From assembly GCA_010093605.1 (NCBI GenBank), contig MU004191.1:1889162-1909161 (forward strand): a stretch of DNA of 20,000 nt, written 5' to 3'. Below, in pieces: positions 1,120-20,000 of this stretch. The notes under the pieces are model-generated. The model searched no databases. It had not been told where the DNA came from and saw only the letters and a program-made list of their open reading frames with translations. A program made the translations under genes and the position numbers. Source of the stretch: Lophium mytilinum (taxonomy: Eukaryota). Position 1 is the stretch's first letter, and the number at the start of each line of letters is the position of its first letter.

Positions 1120-1257
1120 TCCCTAGCAACCTTAACCGAGTAGCAGTATCTATAAGGGGTGTTAAAACGGGTTAGGCAGAGTAAGCCCTATAATAAGAAT
1201 ATTAACAAATCCTTATTTTTAACTAATTATACTCCCTAACTACTTTCTACTTTTTAG

Positions 1258-3180
1258 CTCTATATTCTAAACTATTATCCCCCTTACTACTATACCTAGT
1301 AGTTAGTATAGAACGCCCTTAAAAGTACTAGAATAAAGAAGAGTAAAAAGCAGCTAAATTATATTTAATAGTAGATTTAAACCAACGCAAGAGAGATAAA
1401 AAGAAGAGGGCTATAGACTAAATAGCTGCAGTAGAAGAGGCTAGTAAGCCTACTTCTACTTCTATTCTAGATCCGTTTCTAATTATCTTTAAAAACCCTA
1501 GAGGTCTTTCTAGTATAAACATTAGGGCCCCTTATCCTACCCACCCTGCGCCTACGCCCTTTTAACAACTAATTATACCTTAGAAGCCTTTAGAGAAAAC
1601 TATTATATAACTTATAATTAGTATATCTTTTATAATCTTCTAGTATTTATAGTTAGGTTCTAATAAACTTAAGTAGAACCCGTCTTAATAAAAGAATTAT
1701 TACCTTCTACCTCTACTTAATCTACGCAATATACTCCTCCGCAGCGGTCTACTTATAGTAGTACCCGTTCTACTATTTCTTCTCTATCTATCTAACCTAT
1801 ATAACCTACGTAATATACTCCTCTATAGTAGTCTACCTATAGTAGTATCTATTCTACCGCTCCTCCTCTATCTACTAAACCCACCTAATATTCTACTCTA
1901 GGGCGGGCTACTTATAGCAGTACTTATTCTCTCGCTTCTCTAACTTCTTAATCTACTTAACTAATATAACTTTCTTATATCTAGTAGTCTACTAGTAGTA
2001 GTACACACTCTAGTAAGTTAAAAGCGGCCTAATATATACCTAAAATTTAAAGTAATATAGAATTAATAGAAGCTATAGAGTAAAATTAGAGTAATAGTAG
2101 TAAGTATACTATTATATAGACTATTAAGGGAGCAGCAGTTAAAGAAAAAGAAGAAGCGGCTAAAGAAAGCGAAGTAAATAAAGAAGTAGCCTAAGTAGAT
2201 AAAGAAGTAGAAGAGGCAGTATTAGAGTTGCTATTACCTATATCTTCCGCGTTATCTTCTTATATACCTGCGTTACTACCACCTCTAAATACTAGAGAGG
2301 TATTACCCTCTCTATTACTACCTTCTAGTGTAGGGACACCTTAGTAAGCCGCAAATAATAATAATAGAGCTCCGGGCTAAGTTCTACCCGCTATACGCTA
2401 TCTCTATAAAGTGTTTCTTAAACCTATAGCTATACTATATATATATACAGGCGTATATACTATTCTTACCCTCTAGAATACTCTATAGATAGCTATAATA
2501 CTACACGCAAGTTTACGCGCTTAATAAACTATAGCAGCTCCTACTCCTATATAACTAGAACTAATAATATAACGCTAAATACTAGCCCTTATTACTATAT
2601 TACTACTTTATATACTTATGTAAATAACTAATAAAGAGATTATAGTAGAATTATTCTTAGCGCAATAAAATAAGGCCGTAGAAGTGCTCTCTAGAATAGA
2701 CGCTACGGAATAAATAGATAAGAAGGAAATGCTAGCTAATATAAGTTAGTTTATACAACTAGCGTATAATAATAGTTAGGTTTAGATAGAGTAGTACGCT
2801 GCCTTATTATCTCTCCGCCTAACGCTAGTAACTAAGGTTATAGAAGAGGAATTTACCTAATTTAAGAATAAGGTAGAAGCAGGTGCAGATATAGATAAGG
2901 TATTAAATAATAGAGTTAAAGAGGGTAGAGAAGGTATATATACGCAAGGATAGTAAGATACTATAGATAAATTACCGGGTTTACTTAATAAAGTTACGCT
3001 AGAGAATTAAGGCAGTAGGGTAGATAATATAGCCTTAAATAGTAAAGGCAATAGTAAGATTATAGATAAAGTTATAGATAAGATAGACCCTAATAGGTAA
3101 GTATTATAAGCCCTATAGTTTATATAAAGCTAATATACGTAGGTATAATAATCTATTAGTAAATACTCTATATATAGTAA
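1258..3180 (+). pseudogene. RIP'd gene A: S/T/P/Q-rich low-complexity region followed by charged/helical region, unknown function; boundaries approximate
   Basis: Codon-phased repeats at 1721-2011, an E/K/A-rich stretch at ~2120-2230, and a canonical short intron at 3097-3142 (gtaagt...gctaat...tag). Truncated by the gap at 3181. Confidence 0.5.
1721..2011 (+). repeat. Degenerate coding tandem repeat, about 4 units with spacings of 84, 75 and 81 bp
   Basis: Units read caatatactcctccgcagcggtctacttatagtagtac / taatatactcctctatagtagtctacctatagtagtat / taatattctactctagggcgggctacttatagcagtac / taactttcttatatctagtagtctactagtagtagtac. All periods are multiples of 3 (peptide ~TQYTPPQRSTYSST). Confidence 0.8.
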
Positions 3181-3190
3181 NNNNNNNNNN
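3181..3190. other. Assembly gap (10 N)
   Basis: Run of N. Confidence 1.
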
Positions 3191-6100
3191 TTAGAAGTCT
3201 AGTATACTTACTATATATCTTAACTCTTTCTATTTAGATAATATAGTAGCTAATATTATAATATAGCAAGTAACTATATAATAGTTCCTTAAAGCAGATC
3301 CCTTAGCTAAGTTACTAGCTTTCTTCTAGCTTAGAATCTTTCCTTCTAATAAGAGCCTATTACAGCTAATACAGCCTTCTATTTAATAAGCCAACTAGAG
3401 CTATTATAGAGAGAGGATAATCCTAACAACTTTAATAATATCCTATAGAAATTAATATTAAGCAGAGAAACTAGTAATATAGAAACTCTAAGGCTTAGTT
3501 TTATAAGGTCTAAAGCTAGCTTTATAGCGAATAAAGAGATTAAAATCCGGCAAGTATATAATATTAATAGCATTATTATTAGCATCTCTACTTTAGCGGC
3601 CTATAATTTATACTTCTTACTATTTCTATAACTATCCTTTCTCTAAAGTATTACTTAAAACTAATATATTATAATACGCGGCTATAAGCTCTATATAATA
3701 AAGCAGCTTTACATAGAGTATAGATATAAGTATTAATTTAAAACTTATATATTTTTCCCCTAGATATTAACACTAAATAAGTAGAAGGGTAGTACTTTGC
3801 ATCTACTAGATATAATATAAGCAGCTTAGCTTAATAATATTATCTTACCTATAGTAAAGTATACTCTAATATCTAATAAGTAGTAGTATATACTATACAG
3901 TTTTAATATTATATAGAGTAAAGCAAGCGTTAAGAAAGAAAAATATATAATATTATCTAGAGACTCTTATATTAATACTAAGTATATAATTCTATAGTAT
4001 TAACTCTAAGAATTCTAGAACTAAGTTCTTTATAATGTAGAAAACTTTATAGAAATAGATACTATACCTAAAGATTTATTTAAAGAAGTATTCCTAGTAG
4101 TCTTAGGTTATAATCTAAAAATAGTATATAAGTCCTTAAGTATAATTTAAAGTAGAAATTAGCTACTACGTACTTTAACTACTACTTTTAATAAAAACCT
4201 AATTAATATACTAGATAAGGGGATATAGGTTAACTATAGATATAAAGATATCCTAACTACTAATTAGCTAGATACCGGGGTTACCCTTCTACATAAAACT
4301 AGCTATAACAACTACTAGGCCACTTACTTCTATAATAGTGGAAAAGAAAAGATTTATATAATATTATACCCCTACTATCTTACCTAGGGCGCGTTATCTC
4401 TAATAGTAGAGCTCTAAGCAGGCAACTATAGCCGTATTAGTAGTATAGCATATAATAAAATCTATAATAGTAATAAGATTATACTTAAGTTACCTATTAA
4501 GAATATTACGCCCTTTTATAATACTTAACTAGAAGCTCTTGCGTTCTTAACTAAAATAATTAAGTAGTAGTTTAAAGCGGCAGGTAGCTCTAAAGGATTA
4601 TTAAAAAGAAAATAGCTTTAGAATAGTCTTACTACTATTCTCTAACGCCACTATACTATACTCTAGAGAGATAGATACTTATTCTATAGGGTTTAAACTA
4701 AGTTCTAAGTACTTCTTACTATACTTAAGCAACTTAAAGAAAGCGTAAGTCCTAAATTTACTATAAAGGATAGGCTAGATAATAGTAGTAAGCCTTATTA
4801 CCCCTACTAGGTTCTTTCTATAAAAGAAGTTAATACCTTTACTATTGTAAACCTTAATCGCTAGGTATTCCTTTTCCAGGTACTATCTCTTTAGATTACC
4901 CCCGGGCGTAATACTAGGCATGTAGCAATACTAGATAAATAGCTAGTAAATAGTTATTTAGCATTTCTTTATATCCGCCTTACATAAATTACTACTAGAT
5001 ATAGTAATTCTACTTAATTATCTATACTATAGAAAAAAGAGTAGATAAATTAAAAAGACCCCTAGAATCCTGTAATCTTATATAGCCTTAGGTTATTAGA
5101 CTTCCTTAAAAAGTATAGCATAGCTTAGCTAAAGTTAGAGTACTTAGATTAGATAATAACGCCCCTATAACTTAGTCCTTAAGGCGTTAATTAACTGCAA
5201 GCCGGCCTTAGAAATTAATTCTAAGCTATATTTACTAAAGCTTAGATCTAGGTATCTCTTACTAGGGAGAATATAGAGATGCGGTATCTATAGTATAGCA
5301 TTACAGCATAGTACACGCTAGCTATTTAACGTAAAAATAGAACTAAAGTATAAAAAGATTAGTAATTAGTACCGCTATAGATAGGTAAGGCAGCTGCGCT
5401 TATTATTAAGGCATACTATACTAATATATATAAGCTTCTAAGTAGATAATACATAGAAGAAGATAGAAATACTAAGATATAATAGAAGAGTAAAGAACTA
5501 CGCAACTAATTTCTTAAGAGTATTTTAAATAGATCTATAGTTGCGCTTTATCCTAATATACTTATAAAGCTATATAGAAAGTTAGAACTTATAGTAAGCT
5601 ACGCCTATATGCGGAATGTAGCTAGAAATAGTAATATAAATTATCTAAGGCACTTAACTAGACGCTAAATTAATTAAGTCTAGCCGCTATTTAATATTAC
5701 GGATCTAGCTGCAGAAACTTAAAAATAAAATAATAGTCCCTTCCGCATAAAATTGCAAAGATTAAATGCAATAATTAGAAACAAAGCGTTACTAAAAACG
5801 GTAGAATAATTTCTTAATAATTTATAAGTAAAAGCCGCCTTATTACTCTAGATTCTTCTAAGATACAATAATAATAAAATTTTAACTACGCGTTAAGCTA
5901 AATAAAACAACTCTAAAGATATATAAGATAATATTAGGGGAAGAGATATAATTATAAATATATAGTAGATCTATATGCAACTATTAAATAGCTACTACTA
6001 TAAGGTAGCCTAACTAAGCTAATATATTAAAGAATAGGCTTAAGGGGGGGTAGTTAACCTTAGCATAGACGTAGTTGCAAAGGAAGTATAGAATATAACC

Positions 6101-6480
6101 TAGGGAAGCCCAGGAAAGTTAAAGACAATAATAATAGAGGATAATATTATAGGCCCTAGAGGTTAAGTTAATCTAAAATATATCTAGCTTAGGTTTAAGC
6201 ACTATATACTAAATAGCCCAAGGGCTTATTTAGGCAGAATTCTAATAATTAAAGAATTCTAGAATTATTTAGCAATATAAAAGAAGCAAGAGAGGAATAT
6301 AAGTAGTTAGTTATTAGATAAAGAGTATAAGTATAAAGAGAGTTTAGGTAACTATAGCTTAGAAATAGAGGACTTAGAGGACTTAGGGTAAGAGGTCTAG
6401 AAGAATAAGGCTTAAGTAGAAGAGTTTTAAGAAGTATATAGATTTAAGCGTTAATAGGTAGACTAGTAGGGGCGGCGTTA
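3191..6480 (+). pseudogene. RIP'd gene B: large (~1,000 aa) fungal hypothetical protein with acidic C-terminal tail; ends approximate
   Basis: One frame (position mod 3 = 2) gives protein-like de-RIP motifs: YDIDS (3557-3571), WVDYGYED...VTLLHK (from 4226), GGMAYNKIY...PF...LEALAF (~4440-4490), YGVRTEFRV (from 4685) and GLGLLDFLEKYGMAWLK...LDW (from 5084). These resemble a repeat-associated fungal hypothetical family recalled from memory, with no named domain. Confidence 0.7.
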
Positions 6481-6533
6481 TAAAGAAGAATTATTAATAA
6501 GAGAGGTAGTAAAGTATTTAGTATAAGATATAA

Positions 6534-6568
6534 AGGGCGTTAGTAGAAAGGCTTCTAGCTAGGCTCTT
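6534..6568. repeat. 35-bp palindrome copy 2 (intergenic)
   Basis: agggcgttagtagaaag-g-cttctagctaggctctt. Confidence 0.85.
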
Positions 6569-6659
6569 ATATAGTACGCAAATACTTATCTAGTAGGTGT
6601 ATAGTAGTAATATATATAAGAAGAGAGGTAATAATAGGCGTACTTAATATAAGTAGTAA

Positions 6660-6694
6660 AGGGCCCTAGTAGAAAGGCTTTCTAGCAAGACCCT
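6660..6694. repeat. 35-bp palindrome copy 3 (intergenic)
   Basis: agggccctagtagaaag-g-ctttctagcaagaccct. Confidence 0.92.
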
Positions 6695-7294
6695 TATACT
6701 ATAGGTAAATAGTTATACAACAACGCGCAATATTCTATTAACCTATCTTAGCGCAGTACTGTATTACTAGAACTAGGCGATATATAGCGTAGTATTATAG
6801 ATTAACCGTAAACATTTATATATTAGCGAAATTAAGTAAAACGCTAATATATTTATACCTGTAATATTTTAACCTTATATAATATATAGCCATTATATTA
6901 ACCTTAAGAGTTAACTTAAGTAGTTTACTATTAAAGGCTTAGCGTCTTAGCAGCCGGCGGCTATTAGCCCGGCCGCCCATAAACTTATCCACCGCCTAGC
7001 AGCTTTAACTTTCTTACTTTTATACTAATCTCTCCTTCTATACTACCGCACCCCCATTACTTCTACTTATCTAGCTACCTGCGGAATAGTTGCGCGCTAG
7101 TTTCTTATTTACTAGATAATAGTTAGCAGCTTTCTAGCTATATTAGAGCCGCAATTAGCTAGTTTTAGGCGTTCTTTTAGCTAGCGGTTAAGCCTTTTAG
7201 TAAGTTTACTATCTAGCAGGTAAAATTAAGTTACGTTATAGCTAATTCTGCTAATAGGTTTATTCTATTGCAATTTCTCTAAGAGTAGAGTAAG

Positions 7295-7359
7295 GTAAGC
7301 GTATTATAAGAATTATTATAGAAAGGCTTCCTGCTAGAGCCCTTTACTAGTCTTAGTAG
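7295..7359 (+). other. Predicted intron containing palindrome copy 4 (7309-7343)
   Basis: gtaagc donor at 7295; agaattattatagaaag-g-cttcctgctagagccct; acceptor tag at 7356 or 7359. Confidence 0.6.
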
Positions 7360-7430
7360 ATTAGTCTACCTTAATTTTAAAGATGCGGCGGCAGGAAATA
7401 TTAAGAAAATAATAATACTAAAAATACCCA

Positions 7431-7526
7431 GTATAGTGCATAGGGTCTTAGTAGAAAGCCTTTCTACTAGGGCCCTTTACCTGCCTTCTTTCTTCTATTA
7501 TTTAAGATAAGCTAATATATTAATAG
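7431..7526 (+). other. Predicted intron containing palindrome copy 5 (7442-7476)
   Basis: gt donor at 7431; agggtcttagtagaaag-c-ctttctactagggccct; pyrimidine tract; branch gctaat at 7511; tag at 7524-7526. Confidence 0.65.
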
Positions 7527-8455
7527 GCTAGCTATAAATACCTTAAGCAACGGGGACCCTAGTAAGGTAGTAGTAAAGGTTGCATCCCTATATATATTAC
7601 CTATAACTAACCTAGTAGATAGCTATAAGAAATAATCTACTTCTTCTAAAGTACTAGAAGATTTAAATTCTACCTCTCTACTAGTTACTAAATTAGGGGT
7701 TAATGCCTATGTTAATTTAAAGCGCAATTAGCCGGCCACTGCAATAAATCTAGAGACGCTTGCATTAGTAAATAGCAAAGTAGTTTATCTAGATAGCGAT
7801 AACTATAGTAATAACTCTAATATCCCTAAGAACTCTAATAAAGAGTAAGAAAAGCTTTAAGCGCTAGTTACTAGCAGTAGGAAAGATAAAAAGTTAGAGA
7901 AGTTATAGGCCTTAGTAAATACGCTATATGCTAGTAGAATAAAGTTAGCTAAGCTTTATAGTTAAATAAAAGTAGAACTTAAAGTAATTCTAGCTAAGCC
8001 TAATTTCTAAGTAATTTAGAATAAGTATAAGGATAGGTATTTAGACCTAAAGCGCGCCGTATACAGTTAGAATTAAGGGGCTAGTTTTACTACTATTCTA
8101 AACGCTTTTAAGACTAGCGAGTTGCATAATCTATAGTAATATACTACTCCTTAGCCTAAGATAGATAACTATAAACCCGTAGATTAGGTAGCTTAATTTA
8201 TTAGTTAATGCTTTAATTACTACCAGAAGCGGTTTAGTGGGTTTTTGCACAACCGCGCTAATATTACTAATAATAAAGCGCTTAGAATCTTCTTTAAATT
8301 AAAGAAAAATATAGAATTTAAGAGTAGCCCGTCTTAAGCTAGTAGGACCGCCTATACTAAGAACTAAATTAAGATATAGAATGTTCTTTAAAAAATAAAG
8401 CTTAGTCTAGTACCGGCACCTAAGACCCCGGCCAAAACTATTACTTATAGTAGTA

Positions 8456-8490
8456 AGAATATTAATAGGAAGCCTTTCTATTAAGGCCCT
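8456..8490. repeat. 35-bp palindrome copy 6 (reads in-frame in the helicase ORF)
   Basis: agaatattaataggaag-c-ctttctattaaggccct; frame continuous across it (~IDGKPFHQGP). Confidence 0.8.
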
Positions 8491-9140
8491 TCTAGGCCTC
8501 CCTGTTAGCAGTCGCCCTCTTATTTTACTAAGAAGAAACTCGCGGCTATTAACATAGAGGTTAACGTAGACAACCCTATCTAGGAGTTATCTAAAGAGGA
8601 AATTACTATAAACCTAGTTAATAAGAAGAAAGGTAACGTTAATATTACTAGCGCTAAGTATATTACCGGCACTATAAAATAGAAGCTTAAGTTAGTAATT
8701 ATGCATGCTAAGCGCACTAGAGTAATAATTAACTAGAACTCGTTAAAGTTTTAATATAACGCATATTGGGTAATTAGATAGATAGTAGGAGATTTTATAT
8801 ATACTATTAAATAGCACCTAAATATGCGCGCTGTAGATTTAAATAAGAATAAGTACGCTAATCTAGATAGTATTAAATATGCCTAAGATATAGAGGCTAA
8901 TATAAGGGCTACCGCTATTAATATAAAGAATATTATCCTCTTTACTATACTAACCGCAGTAGATCTTACAACGTAGAGTACACTCCGCCTTCTAATAACT
9001 AATAAAGCCTATTAGCTAGATAACCTTAAAGAAGTAATAAAGGCCCTACGCATTTATAACTATTGGAAACCCCGCCTTATTATAATAAATAGTAATATTT
9101 ACTTAAGGTAGTAGTAGATTACCGGGGCTTACTATATATA

Positions 9141-9175
9141 CTATATTATATAGAAAGGCTTTCTTAGTAGGGCTT
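9141..9175. repeat. Degenerate palindrome copy 7 (exonic, overlapping the start of SNF2 motif I)
   Basis: tagaaag-g-ctttcttagtagggct, encoding ~QKGFLGGA. Confidence 0.6.
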
Positions 9176-9253
9176 TAATTACAGATAAGGTTAGTATTAG
9201 AAAGATATTTTTAATAGCTACCCTTATTAGATATATAAGCAATTTCTCTTTAA

Positions 9254-9288
9254 AGGGTATTAATAGAAAGCCTTTCTACTACCCCCCT
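9254..9288. repeat. 35-bp palindrome copy 8 (exonic)
   Basis: agggtattaatagaaag-c-ctttctactacccccct; in-frame ~GIDGKPFCHPP. Confidence 0.8.
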
Positions 9289-10052
9289 AATAGTTTCTCT
9301 TAGCATCTACTAATTTAATTATAGCTTATTACTAAGCGCTAGCGCAAAGTTATAGATAAGAAAGACCCCGGGCTAGTAAAGCCCTTTTTTTTTCTTATGC
9401 CTCCCGTTTTAGTATACTAAATAGTAAATAAACTTATAAAGTTTAGTTCTAAACTTAAGCTCTATATCTATTTATTAAAGGGCTAAGTTACTTTCTATAG
9501 CGCTATATTTCTACATAATACCTTAACTAGAAACTATTCCTTATTTAATACTAAAAATAAGGTAAATGCTAAGAGCATTGTAATCGCCAGCTATTAGGTA
9601 ATAGCTAGTCGGCACGGTCCCTAGCCCGCATTAAAGTAGTATAGCAATAATAATCTTACTAAGCTAAAGAACTAGGTTAAATATCGCCTAAGCTCTACCT
9701 AGCCCGGTTTCTTAAGTAGCTATTTTAACGTCTAATTTATAGATAAGTGCTAGCTTATTAAAAGTAACTAAGTAAACCTCCACCTAACCGCGTTATAGCT
9801 TTACTTAGACTTTACTATACTCTATAGTAGGACCCTACTATATATAGGTATTACTAATATGCCTACTTATATATCTTTTATAGAACTAAGAGATAAGTAT
9901 TTATAATTCTGCACATACCGCTTAAAACCTAGTAAAGCTAAGTTTATTCCAGGTACTAATAATCCGTTTAAGCTTCCTAATAACTATTTAGGTGTAATTT
10001 TCTAGTATACACGCAAGGCTTTTAAAAATTTTATTCTACCTTTATTTAACCT

Positions 10053-10146
10053 GTAAGTTATTATATAAAGGGCCCTAGTAAAAAGGCTTCTAGCTAGGGC
10101 CCTTATCTCTTCTCTTATTTACTTTAATTTTTTAATATTTCTCTAG
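10053..10146 (+). other. Intron containing palindrome copy 9 (10069-10103)
   Basis: gtaagt donor; agggccctagtaaaaag-g-cttctagctagggccct; polypyrimidine tract and ctctag acceptor; removal restores the helicase frame. Confidence 0.85.
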
Positions 10147-11542
10147 GATTATATAGGGGCTTTATTTACGCTTAATTTTTAGTAAGTATATAATTACTCG
10201 CTTATACCCTTCTATATACCTAAATAATTCTACTAATCCTGCCACCTAAATTAGAGGATTACTTCCGCGGTTAGTTACGCGAGTAATTAAGCTATAGCCT
10301 ATAAAACTAGGCTATATTATCTATACTAATAAATTACTAAGCTACCTTAAGTTATTAATAGTTTCTACTAAGAACTGTGTAGGCTAGCGCACCTATATAT
10401 TTAATATATGCTCTATATATGCTCTTAACCTTATAAGTACTGCGCTATTTTTAGTCTACTCTAAGCGCGCTATAATAGCATATCCGTAAGAGAAGGTCTT
10501 AGATTTAAAGGGTAATAAGATTAAGAACGGCCCAAAAATCATCCCTCTTAAGAATAATAGCGGTTACTAGTTAAAGGAAATAGACGTTTTGCAAGGCATA
10601 ATAAAGTAAATTACCCGGAATAAGAACGTCTAAACTAACCCTAATTAGAAAGACTTTAAAGCAAAGTCCGCACCCTTTTATTATATTATCGCTCTTTTTA
10701 TCCGTAATGCCCCTAAAGTAGCTACACTACTATACTATTTAGCTAATAACGTTATTAAGCGTATAGAGAAGGTTATTATTTAGACTAACTACCTAAATAA
10801 GTAAATAATTCTTGCTAAGATTATTAACTATTATAAAATAGATGCTTATATACTAGCCTTTAATCTCTCTACTACTAACCGGGATAACTTTATCTTAGTG
10901 TTTAACAACCCCGACTCTAAAGTAAAGATTCTTATTACTAGTTACTAGGCTAATAGAGCTAGGCTTAATCTATAGTCTACTTATTATAATATATATCTTT
11001 TTAACCCTGCAGGCTCTATTTAGATTAAGAAGCAGGTAATAGCGCGTTTCTATAGAATTAGCTAGAAGTTTACTATTATAGTAACCGCGTTCTTTATCTA
11101 GGACACATTTAATGCCTTTACTCTCTCGCGCTAGGTGTAGATAGCGCTTTCCGGTCTTACTACTGCGTTAAACACTAACTAGATTAAGGTAGAGGGGACC
11201 TCTAAGGAAAAGCTAACCCTAGATAGCTAGTATGCGTAGATAACCTATAATAATAAGAGTATTGCACCCCGCCTTATTATAGGCAAAATAGATATTTTAA
11301 ATATGCCGGTAGAATTATATATTAAGCGCTTTAACTCCCTATAAGATATTCTTATATTTCTAATAACCCTTATGCAAGGTAATATAACTTTTTAGTCTAG
11401 TAGGTTTAGTAATAAGTTCTAAGAAAAATAAGCGTATAAATTTACTAAATTAGAATTAGAAGAAGAGTAGAAGAAGGGTGTAAATAGAGCGCCTAAGAAA
11501 CCGCGTATTAATAAGCTAGGTTTAAGGCTTAAGTATTATCCT

Positions 11543-11637
11543 GTAAGTAGTAAGTTCGCCCTTATAGGTTCTAGCGGGAAGGCTTTCTACTAGGGCCCTA
11601 CTTACCTTTTTATACTTTGCTAATCCGTGTTTTATAG
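11543..11637 (+). other. Predicted intron containing palindrome copy 10 (11565-11599)
   Basis: gtaagt at 11543 (alternative 11550); taggttctagcgggaag-g-ctttctactagggccct; branch gctaat; tag at 11635-11637. Confidence 0.75.
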
Positions 11638-11820
11638 TAAAAGCTACCCTAAAGCTAAAGCTAAAGACACTAGAGTAATAAAATAGTAAAGCTTTAAAGT
11701 AGAAGCGCAAAGCTAGTACTATACTAGCGGCTGCTATTAAGAAGTATAAGCCTAACCCTAAGTCTACTATTATAGTTAAAGACTTAGATTCTACTAAATC
11801 TAATATGCCTACCCCTATAA

Positions 11821-11855
11821 AGAGCACTACTAGAAAGGCTTATAGCCCTTTTATC
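11821..11855. repeat. Degenerate palindrome copy 11 (in predicted exon)
   Basis: agagcactactagaaag-g-cttatagccct; left arm fair, right arm shortened. Confidence 0.5.
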
Positions 11856-12006
11856 TATTAATATAGGCCGGAGCGTAACCCTTTATATTAAGTCCCCGCT
11901 GTTTTTAGTAATATAGACAGCAATAACTCTTTTAGTAGGCTAAATAGTAATAACTCTAAAGGTAAAAAGTATAAGAATAATACTTTATTCCTTGCAAAGT
12001 ATATAG

Positions 12007-12101
12007 GTAAGAATTTATTCTAGGGCCTTTTTAGAAAGCCTTTCTACTAGGGCCCTTTAGCATCGCCTATTATACTGCTTAAGTGCTAACTATTATAATA
12101 G
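12007..12101 (+). other. Predicted intron containing palindrome copy 12 (12022-12056)
   Basis: gtaaga donor; agggcctttttagaaag-c-ctttctactagggccct; branch gctaac at 12085; tag acceptor at 12101. Confidence 0.8.
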
Positions 12102-12914
12102 CTTCTACTTCCGCCCATTAACCTACTTTAACTCTACCTTCTAGCCCTCTTAGTACCTTTAATAGACGCCTTATTAGGACCTCTTCTATAGACTCTATTC
12201 TATTACCTAATATATAGAAGAAGAGGTAGCGTAGAGTTTCTACTATCTCCTTATAGAATTCTATAGATAATCTAGTTTTTTATTTACTACTAAAAGCTAA
12301 CATTAATATAGATAATAACTAGACTAAGAGTAATAAGTAGAATAAGAAGAATATTAAAACCCCCGACGTTAATATAGAGAACGTCCCGTCTAAGACTAAT
12401 AAGTAAAATGGGGGGTATCTTAATAATTACCCGGATTTTACTACTACGCTATCTAAAGTTGCCTTTAAGCGTAATAGCAACTACAGTAGTAACTTAAATA
12501 ACCCGCCGGAATTTATAGAAGAGGCCTTGTAGCTAACCTTAAAAACTATATCCTCTAGTAATACTAATAAGGGTTAGAAGCGCTAAGGCGCAAAAAAGAA
12601 GCCTACTATAAAGAAGGATAAAGTAGCTAAGAAAGACCCTATATCTAAATTCCTTATATATTGTCCGTACAAGTATATAATAAAGAAAGAGATTACTAAG
12701 TAGCGCCCTTAGCGCGAAAGAAAGGCTACTAAGAAGAAAGCTACTGCGTAGAAGTCTATAAACTCTACTAGACTAAAAATAGACCTACGCAGGCGGAAGA
12801 ATAATCCTAATATTAGCTAACCGCCCGCGGTATTAGGTATAGATACTAACCCTAATAGTAAAGAGAATAGTAGTAAATTAGAGGGGACTAGTATAGTGCT
12901 GGAGAAGTCTAATA

Positions 12915-13027
12915 GTAAGGTATAACTAGTAGGGTTTTTATAGAAAGGCTTTCTATAGGGGCCCTTACCCTACTTTTTAAATTTAGTTTAGTATCTCTTA
13001 ATATCTTTTTTTTTTTCTTTCTAACAG
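12915..13027 (+). other. Possible intron or 3' region containing palindrome copy 13 (12931-12965)
   Basis: gtaagg at 12915; agggtttttatagaaag-g-ctttctataggggccct; T-tract followed by ctaacag ending at 13027. Confidence 0.6.
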
Positions 13028-13329
13028 TTCTAATTAGGACTACTTTTCTTGCTATTAGTTTGCACCTACTTACTTAGTACTGCTAACTTTTTACTATCCT
13101 AATTTCTTACTTACGTTCTATCCTCTACCCCCTAATAGTTAGTACTACTCCGCAGTAGTAGTATACTTTATACCCTTAAAATCTCCTAGTTTATATTTAG
13201 CCTCTAGATAGCGGCTTACTTAACTATAGAATATAGCGTAATATTTACTACTATAACTATGCCTTGCGTATCTTATGCATAATATAATATTTATTTTATT
13301 TATCTATATTATAGAGGGCGGTCTCATCC

Positions 13330-14640
13330 ACCGTAGTTTATGTAGTTAGAAAGGGTAATTACATTCTAATGCTGCTCTATTATATCTATACTATTAGCAT
13401 GTACTTTCTATCTTTTTTATAGTAAAGAATCTGCTATTATATACCCTGTAATTTAACCCTTTTTACTAATATTAGTTATATAGCTAGGCTAAGTTCTCTC
13501 TATAGACTCTATCTATTAATACACTATATATAACTTTATTCTACCTATAGTTCCCTAAAGCGTATATTATTATATAATGCCTAAACTAACTAGAAGAAGA
13601 ATTATTTATATATATTATTATTAAGTCTTTAGCGTACTAGGCGGCGGAAGGTAATTTAGGTATTACAGTTATACTTTCTAGTTTATTAGCAATATATTTA
13701 GACCTGCTTATTATTAGTAAGAATAGTAATTCTTAAAGGGTTATAGTCTTACCGTTTATTACTTTTAATATAACTTTCCTTCTTCTTATAGTTATAAATA
13801 GTCTCTATATTATAAATAGAACTGCTCTTTTATTCTAGTATTTTCCTTTACTTCTATTCTTATAGCCATCTTAATAAGCGCTTTAGCCGTATAAGCTTCC
13901 TTCTTATAATAGAATCTAGAGTAGTATTTATAACCTCGCGCCTAGATAGAGTATTAGGCGTAGTAAGAGAAGAAGCTAACTACTCTATTAGGATATATAT
14001 ATTGGGTAGACGTAGATATATCTACCCCTGCTAAATATTATCCTTAGCGTTTAGAGTTACTATGCTGCTGCGCGTTAACCTTAGTATACCGGGCTATATT
14101 TTATATACTTTAGCCTAGTTTAGAGTTGCAGCCGTCTCTATATTAGGTTAGGCCGCTTCTTATCTTATAAATATCCACCAGAACGCTCTAGAAAGAATAT
14201 ATATAGTATACTAATTAAAACTTACATATAGTATTATACGTAGGCTGCTACTATACTATAAGGGGTAGGTAGTAGTTAGAAAAAGGTTTAATGCGCTAGT
14301 TTCTATTAATCTTAGTATATTACGTGCTAACCTCTTATATTATATCTATACTTATAATTAACCTTTAGAGGTTAACTTTATATACTATATATAAATAGCA
14401 GCTCTAAGAGTTTTATTTTATTACTATACTATACGTATATTTTATCTTAGGCGGAACTAGTAGGTTCCTATAATATATAGTTTATATAACTATACCCTGC
14501 GTTGCTTTAGCGCCCGCCTAATTTACTCTTCCTCTCTTTTCTTACTTTTTTAGCTTATTTCTCTCTACACTATAGCTGCAGGTAAACTAACAGCTAGAAC
14601 TAGCATAGGAGAGACTTTTAATTATATTTAAGGCACTTTA
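13330..14640 (-). pseudogene. Possible RIP'd minus-strand gene, unknown product; boundaries approximate
   Basis: The reverse complement of ~14545-14225 gives a plausible de-RIP frame (~EEREEEQIRRALEQRRVRLHELH...) followed by a gtaagt donor-like site. No domain was recognised. Confidence 0.3.
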
Positions 14641-14889
14641 GAGAAATAGTTTAACGGTATATAAAGTTTTAAAGCTAGTAGGCTATGGGAATACCTATAT
14701 AACTAACTTAGAAGAGTAGTATACTAAGAATAGCACCGCCATAATAGGTATACTAATAGGCTCGGGTACTATTACTTAGAACCCTCTTCTTAACCCTAAT
14801 ATACCTAGTAATACTACAGATCTTACCGCATAAAATGCTAGAGAGGAGTTCTTATTATTTATTTCTAAAATAACTTCTAAGCTAGCTAA

Positions 14890-15367
14890 TATAGACTAAC
14901 CCTATACAACTAAACCGCTTACCGCGGAGGATACTACTAACCCTACCTACATTTATGCCTAGAGAGAAGCACTTCTTGCAACTATCTAGAATTAAAATAG
15001 AGGTTCCCTTTTTAGTAATAGCCTAGGCATGCCTACTAATACTACTCTTAATATATAGCCTACTATAACTAAGTCTTAAACTCTCTATAACTATGCTAAC
15101 CCTCTATTCTAAGCTACTAGAGATAGCGCCCTACCTTCTAAGTCTAATATTAATATTAAGCCTAAACTAGCTAATAAAGTTAATATAAAGATTAAGCCTA
15201 GTATTAAGATTAAGCCCGGCCTTATAAGCAGCCTGGATACTATAACTTTTTTAAGGATAATTTTAAGGATAAGAAGCTTCTACGCTTATAGATTAATATA
15301 GAAGAGAAGAAGGTAAGGGCTATATAAATAAGGTTTAAGGCTATAGCTAGAGAGCGGAAGCGGTAGG
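14890..15367 (+). pseudogene. RIP'd low-complexity ORF fragment with (V/I)KIEP-like repeats and an acidic/coiled-coil segment
   Basis: aagattaagcctagtattaagattaagcccggc (KIEPGIKIEPG after de-RIP), then ~FEDDFEDEELLRLRIDAEEKKARAM in a shifted frame. Confidence 0.4.
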
Positions 15368-15562
15368 GCCTAATCTACTTCTAAATTTAAACCTTAAATA
15401 GAAGTAGTAGCGCTTTAACCTATTTCTATCTCTACGCGCTCATTAGTAAACACCTAACTCTTTATTTAGCGCTGCTAGGCCCTTACTATTCCCTAACCTA
15501 TCTTCTCCTTTAATAGTAACGCGTCCCTACTTTTCTAGAACTATACTCTAGCCCTCTACGCT
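15368..15562 (+). pseudogene. Truncated paralogous fragment of the dsRBD gene (first half of dsRBD1); second copy at 17653-17847
   Basis: Aligns to 16488-16650 but carries an extra in-frame 36 nt after gcctaatctact. Confidence 0.85.
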
Positions 15563-15801
15563 ATCTATATGGAAATCGTCTAATAGGCTTTACTCTTTTA
15601 CTTTACCTTACTTTTATTTCCTTCTTTAATAGCTTTATCTCTACTCTTCTACTATTAGTCTTATCTTTTTCTACTATAGCGGAGCCTCTAGACCTAACCC
15701 CTAGTAATAGTACTAGTTTACCCTTTACTACTATAGTAAAACCTAAAGATTTATCTTCTATTACTACTACTACCGCGTTGCTAACTTGCAAGCTCTAAAA
15801 T

Positions 15802-15894
15802 TATAGATATTGCAGGAAGAAAGCTACTCTAAGGTATAGTTACTATGCTAGCATTATCTACTACAATATAGATTATTAAAAGGCTAACTAGAAA
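15802..15894 (+). pseudogene. RIP'd MYND-type zinc finger fragment; second copy at 18087-18179
   Basis: De-RIP reading CGYCRKKATLRCxxCASIVYCNADCQKADWK. Copy 1 retains tgc at Cys2 and copy 2 retains tgc at Cys4. The final HxxxC is not seen. Confidence 0.75.
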
Positions 15895-16289
15895 TTATCT
15901 AATACACCGCCTTCTTACATAAAGGTTATTACACCATAATAAGACTTCTATACTTTAGCTTAAATTTACTAATAGATAGTAAAGAGCGTAAAGTTTAGTA
16001 GATTATCTAAGGGGTAGAAATTAAAATAGGCTCTAGCTCTATTATATAACTATAAGCTATAATATACTTTACCTCTTATAAACTTAGCCCGCTATATATA
16101 AATATAGAGTCTCTCCTGCCTAAGCGCTAAAGAATAACTTCTAGTAGAGTAGCTGCAGCTACCCTAGCTTATATAGATTAAACTAGCACTCTACCTTAGC
16201 CTTCTTAGGCTAGCCTTTAACCTTATATATATACTAGCATAGGTAGTAATAATTATTCTTATTCTTCCTTTATACTAAGCTTAATTACT

Positions 16290-17458
16290 ACGCCGCTTTC
16301 TAGCTTTAAGAAGAAAAGAAAGATAGAGGTTGTAGCTCCTCTTAGTAGTTAGAACTCTACCCTACTATTAATAGATTAGATATATAGAGGCTCTATTCTA
16401 GGTACCCTAAGCATGCTATAAAACCTTCTTAGTATTAATAAGTTTAAGAAGTAGTATAAAGCCGCCGTTACCGCCGCTAGAGCCTAAGCCTAATCTACTC
16501 TCTAACCTATTCCTATCTCTATATGCTTATTAGTAAATACCTAGCTCTTTATCTAGCGCTGCTAGGCCCTTACTATCCCCTAACCTATCTTCTTATTTAA
16601 TAGCAACACCTTTCTACTCTTCTAGAACTATACTCTAACCCTCTATACTGCCGGCTTTCCCTACTCTCTTACTACTACTAGCCCCTTTACCTTTAAGAAA
16701 GAAGCTAAAGAAGCCGCCTCTACTCTTAGCCTTACCCTCCTCTTCTCTCTTAAAGCCTTAGGTATAGTCTCTACCCCTAGTAAAACTAAAAAATGTACTC
16801 TAACTCTAACTTTTACTACTACTACCCCTAAGAAACCCTAGAAAAACTTTACTAGTATTCTTATAGAATTCTACTAAGCCTCTAAAATTTCTATTCTAAC
16901 CTTTACTAAGTTTAAAACCGGCACCTACTTCTCTACTAAGCTATCGCTAGCCTTATACCGCCCGGAGGACGCCCTCTTTAGTAGCCGCGCTATACTCTAC
17001 CTATTAAAGAAAGCGGCTTATATAGCTATAGTAAGAGAGGTAGTACTCTAGCTATATATAGGGATAGCTACCCGCTATATATAAGCCCGTGTTTAGAAAG
17101 AAGTAGTAGAAGATAGTAGAGGGTTCTAAAAACGCTGCAGTGTAGCTGCCGGGTAGTATAGTAGCGCAGGTGCTAGCACTAGCAAGCAAGCTAGGGCTAC
17201 TATAGCTGGAGTATTAGTAGGCGGCGCTAAGTACGCTAGTGCCGGGGCTATCTATAGTAAGTAGTTTATTCCCGGGGAGTAGAGTAGGTAGAGAGAATAG
17301 AGTAGTAGCAACGGCAAGGTATATAGTTAGAAAGAAGGCGGTAAGGAAAAAGTATGCGCAGTTAATAGGAATAGAGTTAGAAGAAGTATTAGAGAGGAGG
17401 AAGGGGGTGTTAGAAAAGGTATTAGAGAAGGGGAAAAGAGAGGTAGAGATAAGGGAGG
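16290..17458 (+). pseudogene. RIP'd gene for a protein with three double-stranded RNA-binding domains (copy 1); start approximate
   Basis: dsRBD1: TRSSVNTQLFIQRCQALAIPQPVFSF...GPFASKKEAKEAASALGL (~16520-16735). dsRBD2: ENFTGILMEFCQ...PTF...FGGR...SKKAA..A.AREAVLWL (~16840-17055). dsRBD3 after a +1 frame change: AQVLALASKLGL.QPEY...ATARHVVGKKAAREECAQL (~17160-17400). Confidence 0.85.
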
Positions 17459-17468
17459 NNNNNNNNNN
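17459..17468. other. Assembly gap (10 N) exactly at the duplication junction
   Basis: Run of N. Confidence 1.
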
Positions 17469-19743
17469 TATAAAGATTAAGCCTAGTATTAAGATTAAGC
17501 CCGGCCTTATAAGTAGCCTAGATACTATAAGTTTTTTAAGAATAATTCTAAGAATAAGAAGCTTCTGCGCTTGCGGATTAATATAGAAGAGAAGAAGGCA
17601 AGAGCTATATAAATAAGGTTTAAGGCTATAGCTAGAGAGTAGAAGTAGTAGGGCCTAATCTACTTTTAAATTTAAACCTTAGATAGGAGTAGTAGCGCTC
17701 TAATCTATCCCTATCTCTACGCGCTTATTAGCAAATACCTAACTCTTTATCTAGCGCTACTAGGCCCTCGCTATCTCCTAACCTATTTTCTTCTTTAATA
17801 GCAACGCGTTTCTACTCTTCTAGAACTATACTCTAGCTCTCTACGCCGCCTATGCAGAAATTATCTAATAGGCTTTACTCTTTTACTTTACCTTACTCTT
17901 ATTTTCTTCTTTAATAGCTTTATCTCTACTCTTCTACTATTAGTCTTATCTTCTTCTACTATAGTAGAGCCTCTAGACTTAACTTCTAGTAATAGTACTA
18001 GTTTACCCTTTACTACTATAGTAAAATCTAAAGATTTATCTTCTATTACTACTACTACTGCGTTACTAACTTATAAGCCCTAAAATTATAGATATTATAG
18101 AAAGAAAGCTACTCTAAGATATAGTTACTGCGCCAGCATTATCTACTATAATGCGGATTATTAAAAGGCTAACTAGAAATTATTTAATACGCCGCCTTCT
18201 TACATAAAGGTTATTGCACTATAATAAGACTTCTATACTTTAGCTTAAATTTACTAATAGATAGCGAAGAGTGTAAAGTTTAGCAGATTATCTAAGGGGT
18301 AGAAATTAAAACGGGCTCTAGCTCTATTATGTAACTATAAGCTATAATATACTTTACCTCTTATAAACTTAGCCCGCTACGCATAAATATAGAGTTTCTT
18401 CTATCTAAGCACTAAAGAATAACTTCTAGTAGAGTAGCTGCAGCTACCCTAGCTTATATAGATTAAACTAGCACCCTACCTTAGCCTTTTTAGGCTAGCC
18501 TTTAACCTTATATATATACTAGCGTAGGCAGTAATAATTATTCTTATTCTTTCTTTATACTAAGCTTAATTACTATACTACTTTCTAGCTTTAAGAAGAA
18601 AAGAAAGATAAAGGTTGCAGCTCCTCTTAGCAGTTAGAACTCTACCCCGCTATTAATAGATTAGACACGTAGAGGCTCTATTCTAGGTGCCCTAAGCGTG
18701 CTATAAAACCTTCTTAGTATTAATAAGTTTAAGAAGTAGTATAAAGCTACTATTACCGCCGCTAGAGCCTAAGCCTAATCTACTCTCTAACCTATTTCTA
18801 TCTCTATACACTTATTAGTAAATACCTAGCTCTTTATCTAGCGCTGCTAGGCCCTTACTATCCTCTAACCTATCTTCTTATTTAATGGCAATACCTCCCT
18901 ACCCTTTTAAAACTGCACTCTAACTCTCTACGCCGCTAGCTTTCTCTACTTTCTTACTACTACTAGCCCCTTTACCTCTAAGAAAGAAGCTAAAGAAGCC
19001 GCCTCTACTTTTAGCCTTACCCTTCTCTCCTCTCTTAAAGCCTTAGGTATAGTCTCCACCCCTAGTAAAACTAAAAAATATACTCTAACCCTAACTTCTA
19101 CTACTACTACCTCTAAGAAACCCTAGAAAAACTTTACTAGTATTCTTATAGAATTCTACTAAGCCTCTAAAATTTCTATTCTAACCTTTACTAAGTTTAA
19201 AGCTAGCACCTACTTCTCTACTAAGCTATTACTAGCCTTACACCGCCTAGAGGACGCCCTCTTTAGCGGCCGCGCTATACTCTACCTATTAAAGAAAGCG
19301 GCTTATATAGCTATAGTAAGGAAGATAGTACTCTAGCTATATATAGAGATAGCTACCTACTATATATAAGCCCGCGTCTATAAAGAAGTAGTAGAAAATA
19401 GTAGAGAGTTCTAAGAATACTATAGTATAGCTACTAGGCAGTATAGCAGCGCAGGTGCTAGCGCTAGCAAGCAAGCTAGGGCTACTGCAGCTAGAGTATT
19501 AGTAGGCGGCGCTAAGTGCGCTAGCGCCGGGGCTATCTATAGTAAGTAGTTTATTCCCGGGGAGTAGAGTAGGTAGAGAGAATAGGGTAGTAGTAGCAGT
19601 AAGATATATAGTTAGAAAGAAGGCGGTAAGAAAGAAGTATGCGCAGTTAATAGTAATAGAGTTAAAAGAAGTATTAGAGAGAAGAAAGGGGGTGTTAGAA
19701 AAGGTATTAGAGAAAGAAAAAAGGGAGGTAGAAATAAGAGAGG
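17469..19743 (+). repeat. Copy 2 of 2,275-bp direct duplication
   Basis: Colinear with 15184-17458. Confidence 0.97.
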
Positions 19744-19768
19744 GAAATAAGAACTATTATTCTTATTA
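18575..19768 (+). pseudogene. RIP'd triple-dsRBD gene (copy 2); ends approximate
   Basis: Same motifs as copy 1, e.g. tctaagaaagaagctaaagaagccgcc (SKKEAKEAA) at ~18977, with an independent set of RIP mutations. Confidence 0.85.
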
Positions 19769-19886
19769 GGAGTATAGAGAGATATATAATAGAAACTTAT
19801 TTATACTTACTTAATTTAGGTTATAGTAGGGGAAGTATATTAAAAGTATAGTAAGTAGAAAGTATAATTACTTCCGTAGTAATATA

Positions 19887-19921
19887 AGAGTTACTATAGA
19901 AAGGCTTTCTATAAAGGCTCT
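19887..19921. repeat. 35-bp palindrome copy 14
   Basis: agagttactatagaaag-g-ctttctataaaggctct. Confidence 0.85.
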
Positions 19922-19979
19922 ATAAAAAATATTAGTATAATATATATATATAAAAAAGATATATAAATTTATAATAAAA

Positions 19980-20000
19980 AGGATCCCTATAGAAAGCCTT
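19980..20000. repeat. Palindrome copy 15 (cut by window end)
   Basis: aggatccctatagaaag-c-ctt. Confidence 0.75.

Follow-up and report, generated by a model that had tools for sequence, protein, structure and literature searches.

A relic gene in repeat DNA of Lophium mytilinum belongs to an undescribed multi-copy ascomycete family with a probable Rep_trans-like fold

Rep_trans proteins (PF02486) include RepC and RepD of pT181-family plasmids, RepSTK1, MOBT relaxases (Tn916/ICEBs1-type) and CTXphi-type phage initiators. Here we describe gene B, a gene relic in a 20,000-nucleotide stretch of Lophium mytilinum (contig MU004191.1; this whole stretch is called the window, and positions are counted from its first letter), and compare it with these proteins. 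On balance, we lean slightly towards reading gene B as a tyrosine- and metal-dependent DNA nicking-joining enzyme of a new, eukaryotic Rep_trans-like family, killed in this copy by repeat-induced point mutation (RIP). As described by Carr et al (2016, PMC4797284), the bacterial Rep_trans prototypes are dimeric, and a palindromic site is bound by RepD, which also nicks a hairpin and enlists the helicase PcrA. The conserved residues given there are D46; R140, D142, A144 and D146; T176, Y178 and G180; R189, Y191, K193 and E196; and R212 and E214, with D46, D142 and E214 as metal ligands, Y191 as the nucleophile and E196 on the following helix. According to a 2026 account (PMC13107129), Rep_trans enzymes appear restricted to bacteria, and TBP-fold initiators extend to archaea with Rep-Arvir (DUF7845, PF25227), a group of TBP-fold rolling-circle endonucleases of archaeal viruses and plasmids. 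Among the papers listed for Rep_trans with eukaryotes, fungi or Helitrons in the limited collection of literature searched, none dealt with a eukaryotic member by title or abstract.

Among fungal repeats, X3X3R8 of Stagonospora (Parastagonospora) nodorum is described as a 26-kb RIP-affected repeat with Rad5/SNF2-like helicases and uncharacterised open reading frames (ORFs), partly in tandem (Hane and Oliver, 2010, PMC3017866). Judged by description, no other known genomic object comes closer to the window, which likewise holds a SNF2 relic, unknown ORF relics and a tandem duplication; as a point of difference, a Rad6-like ubiquitin-conjugating (UBC) relic was not detected in the scanned parts of the window. 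Telomere-linked helicases (TLHs) are a second point of comparison: OrsD, DEAD and Helicase_C form the domain set described for them (BcTLH), and the repeats of Leptosphaeria maculans are described as including a RIPped RecQ TLH.

The window is fungal repeat DNA degraded by RIP. It is AT-rich throughout (GC about 0.21-0.40), its RIP indices are extreme in each 1-kb block (TpA/ApT 1.6-2.6; (CpA+TpG)/(ApC+GpT) 0.17-0.39), and it holds four ORFs of at least 80 amino acids. Runs of N lie at 742-1013, 3181-3190 and 17459-17468. Pfam hmmscan of X-read translations returned no family from 1201-8400 and 14101-20000 on both strands or from 8101-14100 on the + strand, and no Rfam family was found in the window.

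An earlier note, made from the letters alone, had proposed that a single frame holds for more than 1.6 kb at 3551-5160 and that it is an enzyme-like gene, a candidate transposase or nuclease. Read literally, frame +2 of 3551-5161 holds 45 stops in 537 codons (18 TAA, 27 TAG and no TGA), a density of 8.4% against 9.3-15.3% in the other five frames (50-82 stops; longest open run 41 codons), and stop counts alone barely distinguish it. Because RIP makes transitions only and so leaves the purine/pyrimidine pattern unchanged, codons were scored in that alphabet, using a generic coding model whose amino-acid and third-base frequencies are rough values. Frame +2 scored 0.5 against -3.2 for its antisense partner and -25 to -45 for the remaining four frames, and none of 1000 simulated sequences with the same trinucleotide content (mean -22.4, standard deviation 6.6) reached the observed best-of-six score. 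The coding phase runs on in frame +2 through 2828-6412 (7.5, against -18.4 for the antisense, placing the + strand ahead by 26 units), and the top local coding segment, 4025-4858, scored 10.2, where 0.04 segments of at least 10 are expected per simulated 20 kb.

Homology searches gave the frame a family. A word-based protein search with the translation of 3551-5160 found none among 3772 candidates. Searching 1.84 billion representatives by phmmer with the X-read translation of 2828-6412 returned 103 proteins at E<=1e-3, of which 49 reached E<=1e-10 and 4 reached E<=1e-30. From 38 full-length homologues a profile was built; against the six-frame window it gave a single match in + frame 2 (nucleotides 3380-5941, E 1.8e-90), covering profile positions 23-881 of 991 in one piece and with no frameshift. 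At the 77 columns conserved to at least 80%, the window has the same residue in 41, a derivative explained by C>T or G>A only in 30 and another change in 6; these 71 same or RIP-compatible columns compare with an average of 11.6 and a maximum of 22 in 1000 draws of random codons in the same frame. Match columns take in 73 of the in-frame stops, and there the homologues carry W (17.8%), R (17.2%) and Q (11.2%). Gene B is confirmed as a real gene relic, and at about 3.1 kb it is longer than the earlier note had it, with ends extrapolated from profile positions 23 and 881 of 991. The window copy has been dead since RIP and mobilises nothing now. Its parts are as follows.

About 3300-6400, + strand: gene B exon 2, RIP-degraded, about 1040 codons in one frame (absolute frame 2); profile-aligned core 3380-5941.
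3380-4940, + strand: N-terminal half, the part predicted in intact homologues as a TBP-like/Rep_trans-like curved beta-sheet.
4940-6400, + strand: C-terminal half, an all-helical domain in intact homologues.
2420-3180, + strand: possible relic of exon 1 (acidic, low-complexity) and the intron, uncertain; interrupted by the assembly gap at 3181-3190.

Gene B is a two-exon, undescribed ascomycete gene of about 1300 amino acids, of which the window holds exon 2. Most homologues are 850-1500 amino acids long, and those with names are all called "hypothetical protein" (e.g., OCK73043.1, OBT52139.1, MCJ1396608.1). Named members come from Dothideomycetes (Coniosporium, Lepidopterella, Aulographum), lichen-forming Lecanoromycetes (Xylographa, Flavoplaca, Variospora, Xanthomendoza) and Pseudogymnoascus, a patchy distribution, mostly on short contigs, with divergent paralogues under one species name (two from Aulographum hederae, for example). 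We gathered 33 metagenome loci (numbered L001 onwards) with a 7-sequence alignment of the family. In 24 of them an acidic ORF of about 280 amino acids lies directly 5' of gene B on the same strand, and in L001 and L011 a canonical intron (5' GTACGT or GTTAGT, a TACTAAC branch site and terminal AG) joins it to B at the identical codon; some database gene models already fuse the two. As this intron joins acidic exon 1 to B, the gene is a nuclear fungal one of about 1300 amino acids, copied as DNA. In the window, the exon-1 profile gave a weak match at 2420-2554 (E 0.02) on the strand and in the frame of gene B, and a coding-phase segment in frame +2 lies 5' of exon 2 at 2828-3097. Intact copies are under purifying selection, with a ratio of nonsynonymous to synonymous substitution rates (dN/dS) of 0.13 for L001 versus L007; other intact pairs are saturated at synonymous sites, the proportion of nonsynonymous differences (pN) lying far under that of synonymous ones (pS). 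The intron also splits a conserved Cys/His-rich motif, C-x-C-D-E-P-x-H (L001:2025-2876 / 2858-5968; L011:6052-6567 / 6536-9985), which may form a small metal-binding element.

No described family accounts for these proteins. In Pfam none was common to the 38 aligned members, and neither PHROGs nor NCBIfam had a family common to at least two of them. Pfam scans were extended to 42 further proteins, namely 37 further homologues (some twice, as protein and locus ORF), P0064 and one neighbouring ORF. Among the 20 top homologues 19 were without any family, as were all 22 further proteins; the one exception was P0064, a protein of DDE_1 repeats whose match is confined to query residues 754-812 and which was judged unrelated. 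A sequence profile search of the PDB returned nothing at E<=1 (two chance rows at E<=10), the ESM Atlas had no usable match for P0012 or P0114, and no fused forms longer than 2054 amino acids were found, which is weak evidence.

All six motifs that the earlier note had guessed by undoing RIP coincide with the most conserved motifs of the family: YDIDS is (W/F)D(V/I)DS, YVFFP is CHVFFP, WVDYGYED is WLD(L/Y)G.ED, YNKIY is AYNKAYN, YGVRTEFRV is FGVRQEYRI, and GLG..YG.AW..DW is GL....yGmaW....W. Four of the motifs of interest stand in the window as follows.

3560-3568, + strand: D.D motif, now AAT-x-AAT (N.N); both D>N changes (3560 and 3566) are RIP-compatible.
4226-4246, + strand: W.D.G.E motif, now stop-V-N-Y-R-Y-K, with W>TAG at 4226, D>N at 4232 and E>K at 4244.
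4457-4477, + strand: K.YN..K motif, still K-I-Y-N-S-N-K; K, Y, N and K are kept, and the Tyr codon TAT at 4463 is intact.
4688-4708, + strand: G.R.E.R motif, now R-V-stop-T-K-F-stop, with G>R, R>TAA at 4694, E>K at 4700 and R>TAA at 4706.

The acidic residues that the earlier note had picked out are conserved across the 38 members (P0012 numbering): D71 and D73 of D.D in 36 each, D304 of W.D.G.E in 38 and its E308 in 37, and E463, like the flanking R461 and R465 of R.E.R, in all 38. The counts for other positions are as follows: W302 is kept in 34, and position 306 is Gly in 28 and Ala in 10; T355 is kept in 35, D357 in 30 and G359 in 29; K381 in 35, Y383 in 38, N384 in 32 and K387 in 36, with Glu (24) or Asp (8) at position 388. 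An H..K motif is also among those conserved in the family. A short database protein, P0002 (143 amino acids, from a 702-nucleotide contig), is 72% identical to the gene B residues of the window and shares its RIP-type substitutions (GYNLK, VNYRYKD), so that the lineage of the window has a second RIPped copy in a public assembly.

AlphaFold2, run with a 100-row alignment, gave a confident model of the N-terminal half (546 residues; predicted local distance difference test (pLDDT) 92.0, predicted template modelling score (pTM) 0.90). The C-terminal half was modelled as helical (pLDDT 89.3), and fold search returned generic helical matches only. When the N-terminal model was compared with 48,161 representative chains by VIA, an aligner independent of Foldseek, Rep_trans chains ranked 1-2, above TBP. 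The folds that the earlier note had listed for comparison (RNase H-like, PD-(D/E)xK, HUH and primase-polymerase) did not come up among the listed matches; the best structural match for the model is the TBP-like Rep_trans fold, at modest Z. In intact relatives the N-terminal half probably folds as the curved TBP-like beta-sheet of Rep_trans initiators and relaxases (RepC/RepD/RepSTK1).

The conserved residues follow the same order. The Rep_trans signatures carried by pT181 RepC (TRLDLAFD, ETKYFG, RIYNKKQE, WRVEIE) recur colinearly in the B family as Asp; hDh(A/G)h(D/E); T.x.G; (R/K)xYN...E; and RxE, the first four being conserved in 29-38 of the 38 members. The B equivalents are D73; D304, G306 and E308; T355 and G359; K381, Y383, N384 and E388; and R461 and E463, which lie in the model on strands 71-86, 296-308, 355-362 and 374-381, helix 382-387 and strand 459-466. 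The predicted layout follows that of RepD (strand 6, strands 9-10, helix α4, strand 11), and a helical insert precedes the last strand. D73, D304 and E463 sit in the model on three different strands, in Rep_trans order. The second Asp of D.D is a candidate equivalent of the Rep_trans metal ligand D46/D9; the VIA alignments start at model residues 72-73 versus chain residues 1/39 and set model D80 opposite D9/D46. By its residues, W.D.G.E would correspond to R.D.A.D of Rep_trans, whose D142 is a metal ligand, and G.R.E.R is a candidate match to R212.E214, where the Glu is the ligand. The invariant Tyr of K.YN..K (window codon 4463) is a candidate nucleophile, comparable with R.Y191N...E, and in the model this motif spans a strand end and then a helix, as described for Y191 and E196.

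On this reading the N-terminal half would be a curved TBP-like sheet on which an invariant Tyr acts as nucleophile, flanked by a basic residue (-2) and Asn (+1) and followed by Glu or Asp (+5) on the next helix. Three conserved carboxylates, one each from D.D (its second Asp), W.D.G.E (Asp) and R.E.R (Glu), would be candidate metal ligands. The protein would then be a Mg- or Mn-dependent DNA nicking-joining enzyme. Its target would be the lineage-specific palindromes scattered in the repeat units, specificity or the binding of a partner would fall to its large helical C-terminal half, and its partner would be the adjacent superfamily 2 (SF2) helicase, of SNF2 type in the window and of the RecQ-like "telomere-linked helicase" type elsewhere. 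Nickase and helicase together would amplify the unit as DNA, possibly by rolling-circle spread.

The gene B family is multi-copy. RIP-like copies of B occur in 15 of the 33 metagenome loci (GC 0.31-0.39, 42-75 in-frame stops), with two more partly affected, and 14 of the 15 still lie in a single frame, L016 being matched in three pieces. Ten loci come from one metagenome, on different contigs. The shared DNA of the units ends sharply and the flanks differ; the unit is about 4.7 kb in one lineage (L002:1581-6259) and about 5.4 kb in that of L019. The left end of the L019 lineage is TTATAAGGGTTAGGGGGTTAGG, double TTAGGG-like, in four different flanks (L019:7577, L028:7285, L031:7452, L032:7576), and its right end (about L019:12930-13200) is a variable array of the 12-mer GTAGACGTTATA, of which inverted copies occur elsewhere in the contigs. 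B units are found in differing contexts, also away from any helicase. The DNA profile of the repeat unit matches the window at 3420-4005 only, too little to fix where the element begins and stops there.

Helicases are recurrent neighbours. The helicase that the earlier note had placed next to gene B is there, as a relic on the same strand:

7519-11683, + strand: SNF2-type helicase gene, RIP-degraded, 3' of gene B; coding segments 7519-9591 and 10310-11683.

The Pfam scan itself missed this relic. A profile of the SNF2 ORFs of L011, L014 and L015 matched it at 10703-11071 (E 1.8e-4), with a recognisable, RIP-altered helicase-C motif, and again weakly and colinearly at 9097-9228 (E 0.54); these matches lie inside coding-phase relics, and a helicase neighbour of gene B therefore exists. 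Among the 33 loci, 15 have a helicase gene or relic in the fetched DNA, 12 of OrsD+DEAD type and 3 of SNF2 type. The former is a 1583-amino-acid ORF with OrsD, DEAD and Helicase_C; an ORF with this TLH domain set lies directly beside B in six loci (L001-3, L017, L029, L030), and partial matches to it lie near B in L023, L027, L028, L016, L022 and L013. In the window, phmmer found no match to the TLH-type ORF or to ORF-a of L001, and the best match of the TLH-type profile had E 6.

Palindromes accompany gene B as well. A dispersed palindrome of about 35 nucleotides, AGGGCCCTAGTAGAAAGGCTTTCTACTAGGGCCCT with RIP variants, has 12 copies in the window:

1074-1119, 6514-6554, 6640-6680, 7298-7343, 7431-7476 and 8445-8490: palindrome copies.
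9243-9288, 10049-10089, 11571-11613, 12011-12056, 12920-12965 and 19876-19921: palindrome copies.

They include copies past gene B, copies on either side of the SNF2 relic and within it, and others elsewhere; some within coding relics are read through in frame. Two (6514-6680) lie 100-250 nucleotides past the end of gene B; in L002 and L011 palindromes lie 96-150 nucleotides past the B stop, matching this position. The palindromes at matching positions in intact loci (L011, L001-3, L014/15) are unrelated in sequence and occur even inside intact L011 ORFs; such lineage-specific palindromes are mostly at gene borders and sometimes within ORFs. That of L011 has 26 nucleotides and about 10 copies, L014 and L015 have their own separate one, and a 24-nucleotide palindrome is common to L001-3, L020, L022, L025 and L028, with one copy about 25-55 nucleotides before the 3' boundary of the unit. 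The earlier note had seen in gene B the best candidate for a mobilisation enzyme or palindrome binder. This gains from the bacterial kin of the predicted fold, which recognise palindromic origins and recruit a helicase, but the window copy is dead. A once-functional, enzyme-like gene with the predicted fold of a DNA nicking-joining enzyme stands, but "transposase" is unproven, no terminal inverted repeat (TIR) or target-site duplication (TSD) having been found.

Palindromic DNA and a helicase are companions that B has in common with Rep_trans, a link drawn by analogy. B resembles Rep-Arvir, as far as the latter is described in PMC13107129, in that a TBP-like Rep_trans-type catalytic domain is recognised outside bacteria by structure only; Rep-Arvir is archaeal with a central winged helix-turn-helix, whereas the B family, likened to it by description, has no Pfam match to DUF7845. 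B differs from Rep_trans in having an extra arginine in R.E.R and a conserved D.D pair, a C-terminal helical half of about 450 residues in place of a small helix-turn-helix domain, and an acidic exon-1 extension with a spliceosomal intron, being nuclear and fungal; its putative helicase partner is element-encoded and of SF2, not the host's superfamily 1 PcrA.

Several observations weigh against a Rep_trans-like nickase. Foldseek with the N-terminal model gave nothing at E<=1e-3 in the PDB (best 0.95) or BFVD (best 0.018). The Pfam models Rep_trans (PF02486), Phage_Cri and DUF7845 had no match among the 38 members at E<=5 or among the 42 further proteins, and hhalign of the B family against pT181 RepC gave a probability of 0.2. 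The motif correspondence was drawn by eye. The published residues were turned into a colinear pattern, which both RepC and the N-terminal half of B contain; it also turns up in 22 of 200,000 shuffles, a figure that flatters the match, as the pattern was loosened after the family had been seen. B has Trp for R140, Asp for Y178 and Lys at Tyr+4 (36 of 38) rather than at Tyr+2 (K193), and its core of about 420 residues, with inserts of 50-80 residues, compares with about 210 in bacterial Rep_trans domains. On the genomic side, no TIRs or TSDs were found at the units or around gene B, and neither a TIR nor a long terminal repeat surrounds gene B in the window, in DNA or in purine/pyrimidine space. 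No circles or empty sites were among the observations on B units, 18 of the 33 loci have no helicase in the fetched DNA (two query ORFs, E<=1e-4), and the L019 lineage has tandem 12-mers in place of palindromes. Finally, recombinational spread in the manner of subtelomeres would give the copy number without any enzyme.

That last process defines the best-surviving alternative, which we consider rather unlikely: gene B would be a passenger of a subtelomere-type repeat (as yeast Y' or the TLH regions of Magnaporthe oryzae) multiplied when chromosome ends recombine, its product would bind DNA with a TBP-like fold or be a different sort of enzyme from a rolling-circle nickase, and the element would encode no mobilisation enzyme. 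The TLH-domain helicase ORF beside B in six loci, with partial matches in six more, fits this, as does the lack of any TIR or TSD found. So do the unit ends of the L019 lineage, whose double TTAGGG-like left end and right array of 12-mers resemble the "helicase-associated repeats" described as bounding the TLH of M. oryzae (PMC1635262); TLH-type ORFs near B and units bounded by tandem repeats and telomere-like motifs are features that B shares with TLH regions and Y'. However, no run of at least three telomere repeats was found in the window or the 33 loci, the units occur in differing contexts, also away from helicases, the helicase of the window is SNF2-type, no telomere arrays are nearby, and the parts of the TLH descriptions consulted mention no B-like gene. 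Nor would a mere DNA binder need an invariant Tyr together with invariant Asp, Glu and Arg on alternate strand positions, and Rep_trans chains rank above TBP.

A diverged transposase or nuclease of a known kind, whether DDE/RNase H-like, HUH (Helitron-like), PD-(D/E)xK, tyrosine-recombinase (Crypton-like) or primase-polymerase, is improbable. The conserved D.D, H..K, D...E and R.E.R can be read as a metal-dependent catalytic site, the family is multi-copy and a RIP target, and Cryptons consist of a single intron-containing gene without TIRs, a likeness to the B units. Yet no Pfam family of these kinds was found in the 38 members or the 37 further homologues, no His-hydrophobic-His pair is present among the invariant or near-invariant columns, and RNase H-like, HUH, PD-(D/E)xK, tyrosine-recombinase and primase-polymerase folds are absent among the 50 best VIA rows and the Foldseek list, a weak negative. 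For HUH and Helitrons in particular, the conserved columns hold no H-x-H pair and Pfam gave no Helitron_like_N or PIF1 match. Two sets of candidates read from the motifs by eye were set aside: a primase-polymerase (D.DS, SGH.LK, WLDLG) had no Pfam or PHROG match and its fold was not among the listed structural matches, and TOPRIM, HKD, the tyrosine recombinase/topoisomerase IB pentad and reverse transcriptase had no search support.

Still less probable is an ordinary single-copy host gene RIPped by leakage from neighbouring repeats. Its canonical spliceosomal intron and the purifying selection on intact copies would suit a host gene, and leakage is conceivable given that the entire 20-kb window is RIPped, but the homologues are not single-copy housekeeping genes: B is RIP-like in 15 of the 33 independent loci, 10 loci come from one metagenome, and divergent paralogues within a species, a patchy taxonomy and short contigs accompany it. 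That no gene exists, and that a chance frame in AT-rich RIPped DNA yielded motifs invented by guessing at the original letters, is already refuted, for although the stop density is near that of the other frames and Pfam and the first word-based search came back empty, the unbroken profile match (E 1.8e-90), the 49 homologues at E<=1e-10, the 0 of 1000 simulations and the 71 of 77 RIP-compatible columns against 11.6 in the control all oppose it.

It is possible, though we hold it doubtful, that gene B represents the first eukaryotic branch of TBP-fold rolling-circle endonucleases and that, with SF2 helicases and palindromes, it defines a class of rolling-circle mobile elements new to fungi. In function these would parallel Helitrons while being assembled from unrelated parts, giving eukaryotes a second, independent nickase-plus-helicase element type beside them. 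Like Helitrons (HUH Rep with Pif1 helicase), B units would follow a nickase-plus-helicase logic, have no TIRs or TSDs found and are multi-copy in fungi, and the L002 lineage has a palindrome about 25-55 nucleotides before a conserved 3' boundary; unlike Helitrons, B has a different predicted fold (no HUH motif), and the putative nickase is encoded apart from the helicase, which belongs to SF2 (SNF2- or RecQ-like). The second class of rolling-circle endonucleases would then be represented in every domain of life, an origin would be given for the puzzling TLH regions and for X3X3R8 and other large RIPped helicase repeats, and it would become testable why helicase-bearing fungal repeats (TLH, X3X3R8-like) multiply and carry dispersed palindromes. 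In practical terms, a name and a profile now exist for a component that recurs in RIPped AT-rich isochores and escapes ordinary annotation; should the Rep_trans reading fail, gene B would still stand for an uncharacterised family of repeat genes targeted by RIP, ordinary but of use for annotation. Two further fungal elements were considered and set aside: the Neurospora element Sly1-1, a TIR-bearing CMC transposon whose genes are divergent, is not comparable to B, and no link to B was seen in the Botrytis "Helitron-like" element, which is defined by its helicase and for which the description consulted reports no nuclease domain detected.

The remainder of the window and of the loci holds further repeats and relics. 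The largest repeat in the window is the following.

15184-17458 and 17469-19743: tandem duplication of 2275 nucleotides, the copies split by a 10-N gap.

The two copies have 91% DNA identity and score 2266 of 2275 in purine/pyrimidine space; being near-identical there, they differ almost entirely by transitions, a clean RIP signature. Each contains an internal 153-nucleotide repeat at a spacing of 1087 nucleotides. Other strong coding-phase relics (purine/pyrimidine scores 18-28) lie at 12059-12922, 14642-15286, 16131-17456 and 18416-19747, and none has a Pfam match. Double CCCTAA-like motifs (e.g., CCTAACCCTAA) occur at 11751, 14789 and 19084 (also 16799), one just past the SNF2 relic and others near the starts of other relics, and a RIP-tolerant search counted 8 such matches in the window where about 1.4 were expected from mononucleotide shuffles. 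In the metagenome loci, long, degenerate, (GTA)n-rich satellite-like arrays, common to several loci, lie 3' of the TLH-type helicase (L002:12200-16000, L017:8200-11987, L030:9200-12873, L026:1-4100). The region 5' of gene B in the window has tandem repeats of its own, with an 84-nucleotide unit in about three copies (1713-1955) and units of about 211-221 nucleotides (194-738).

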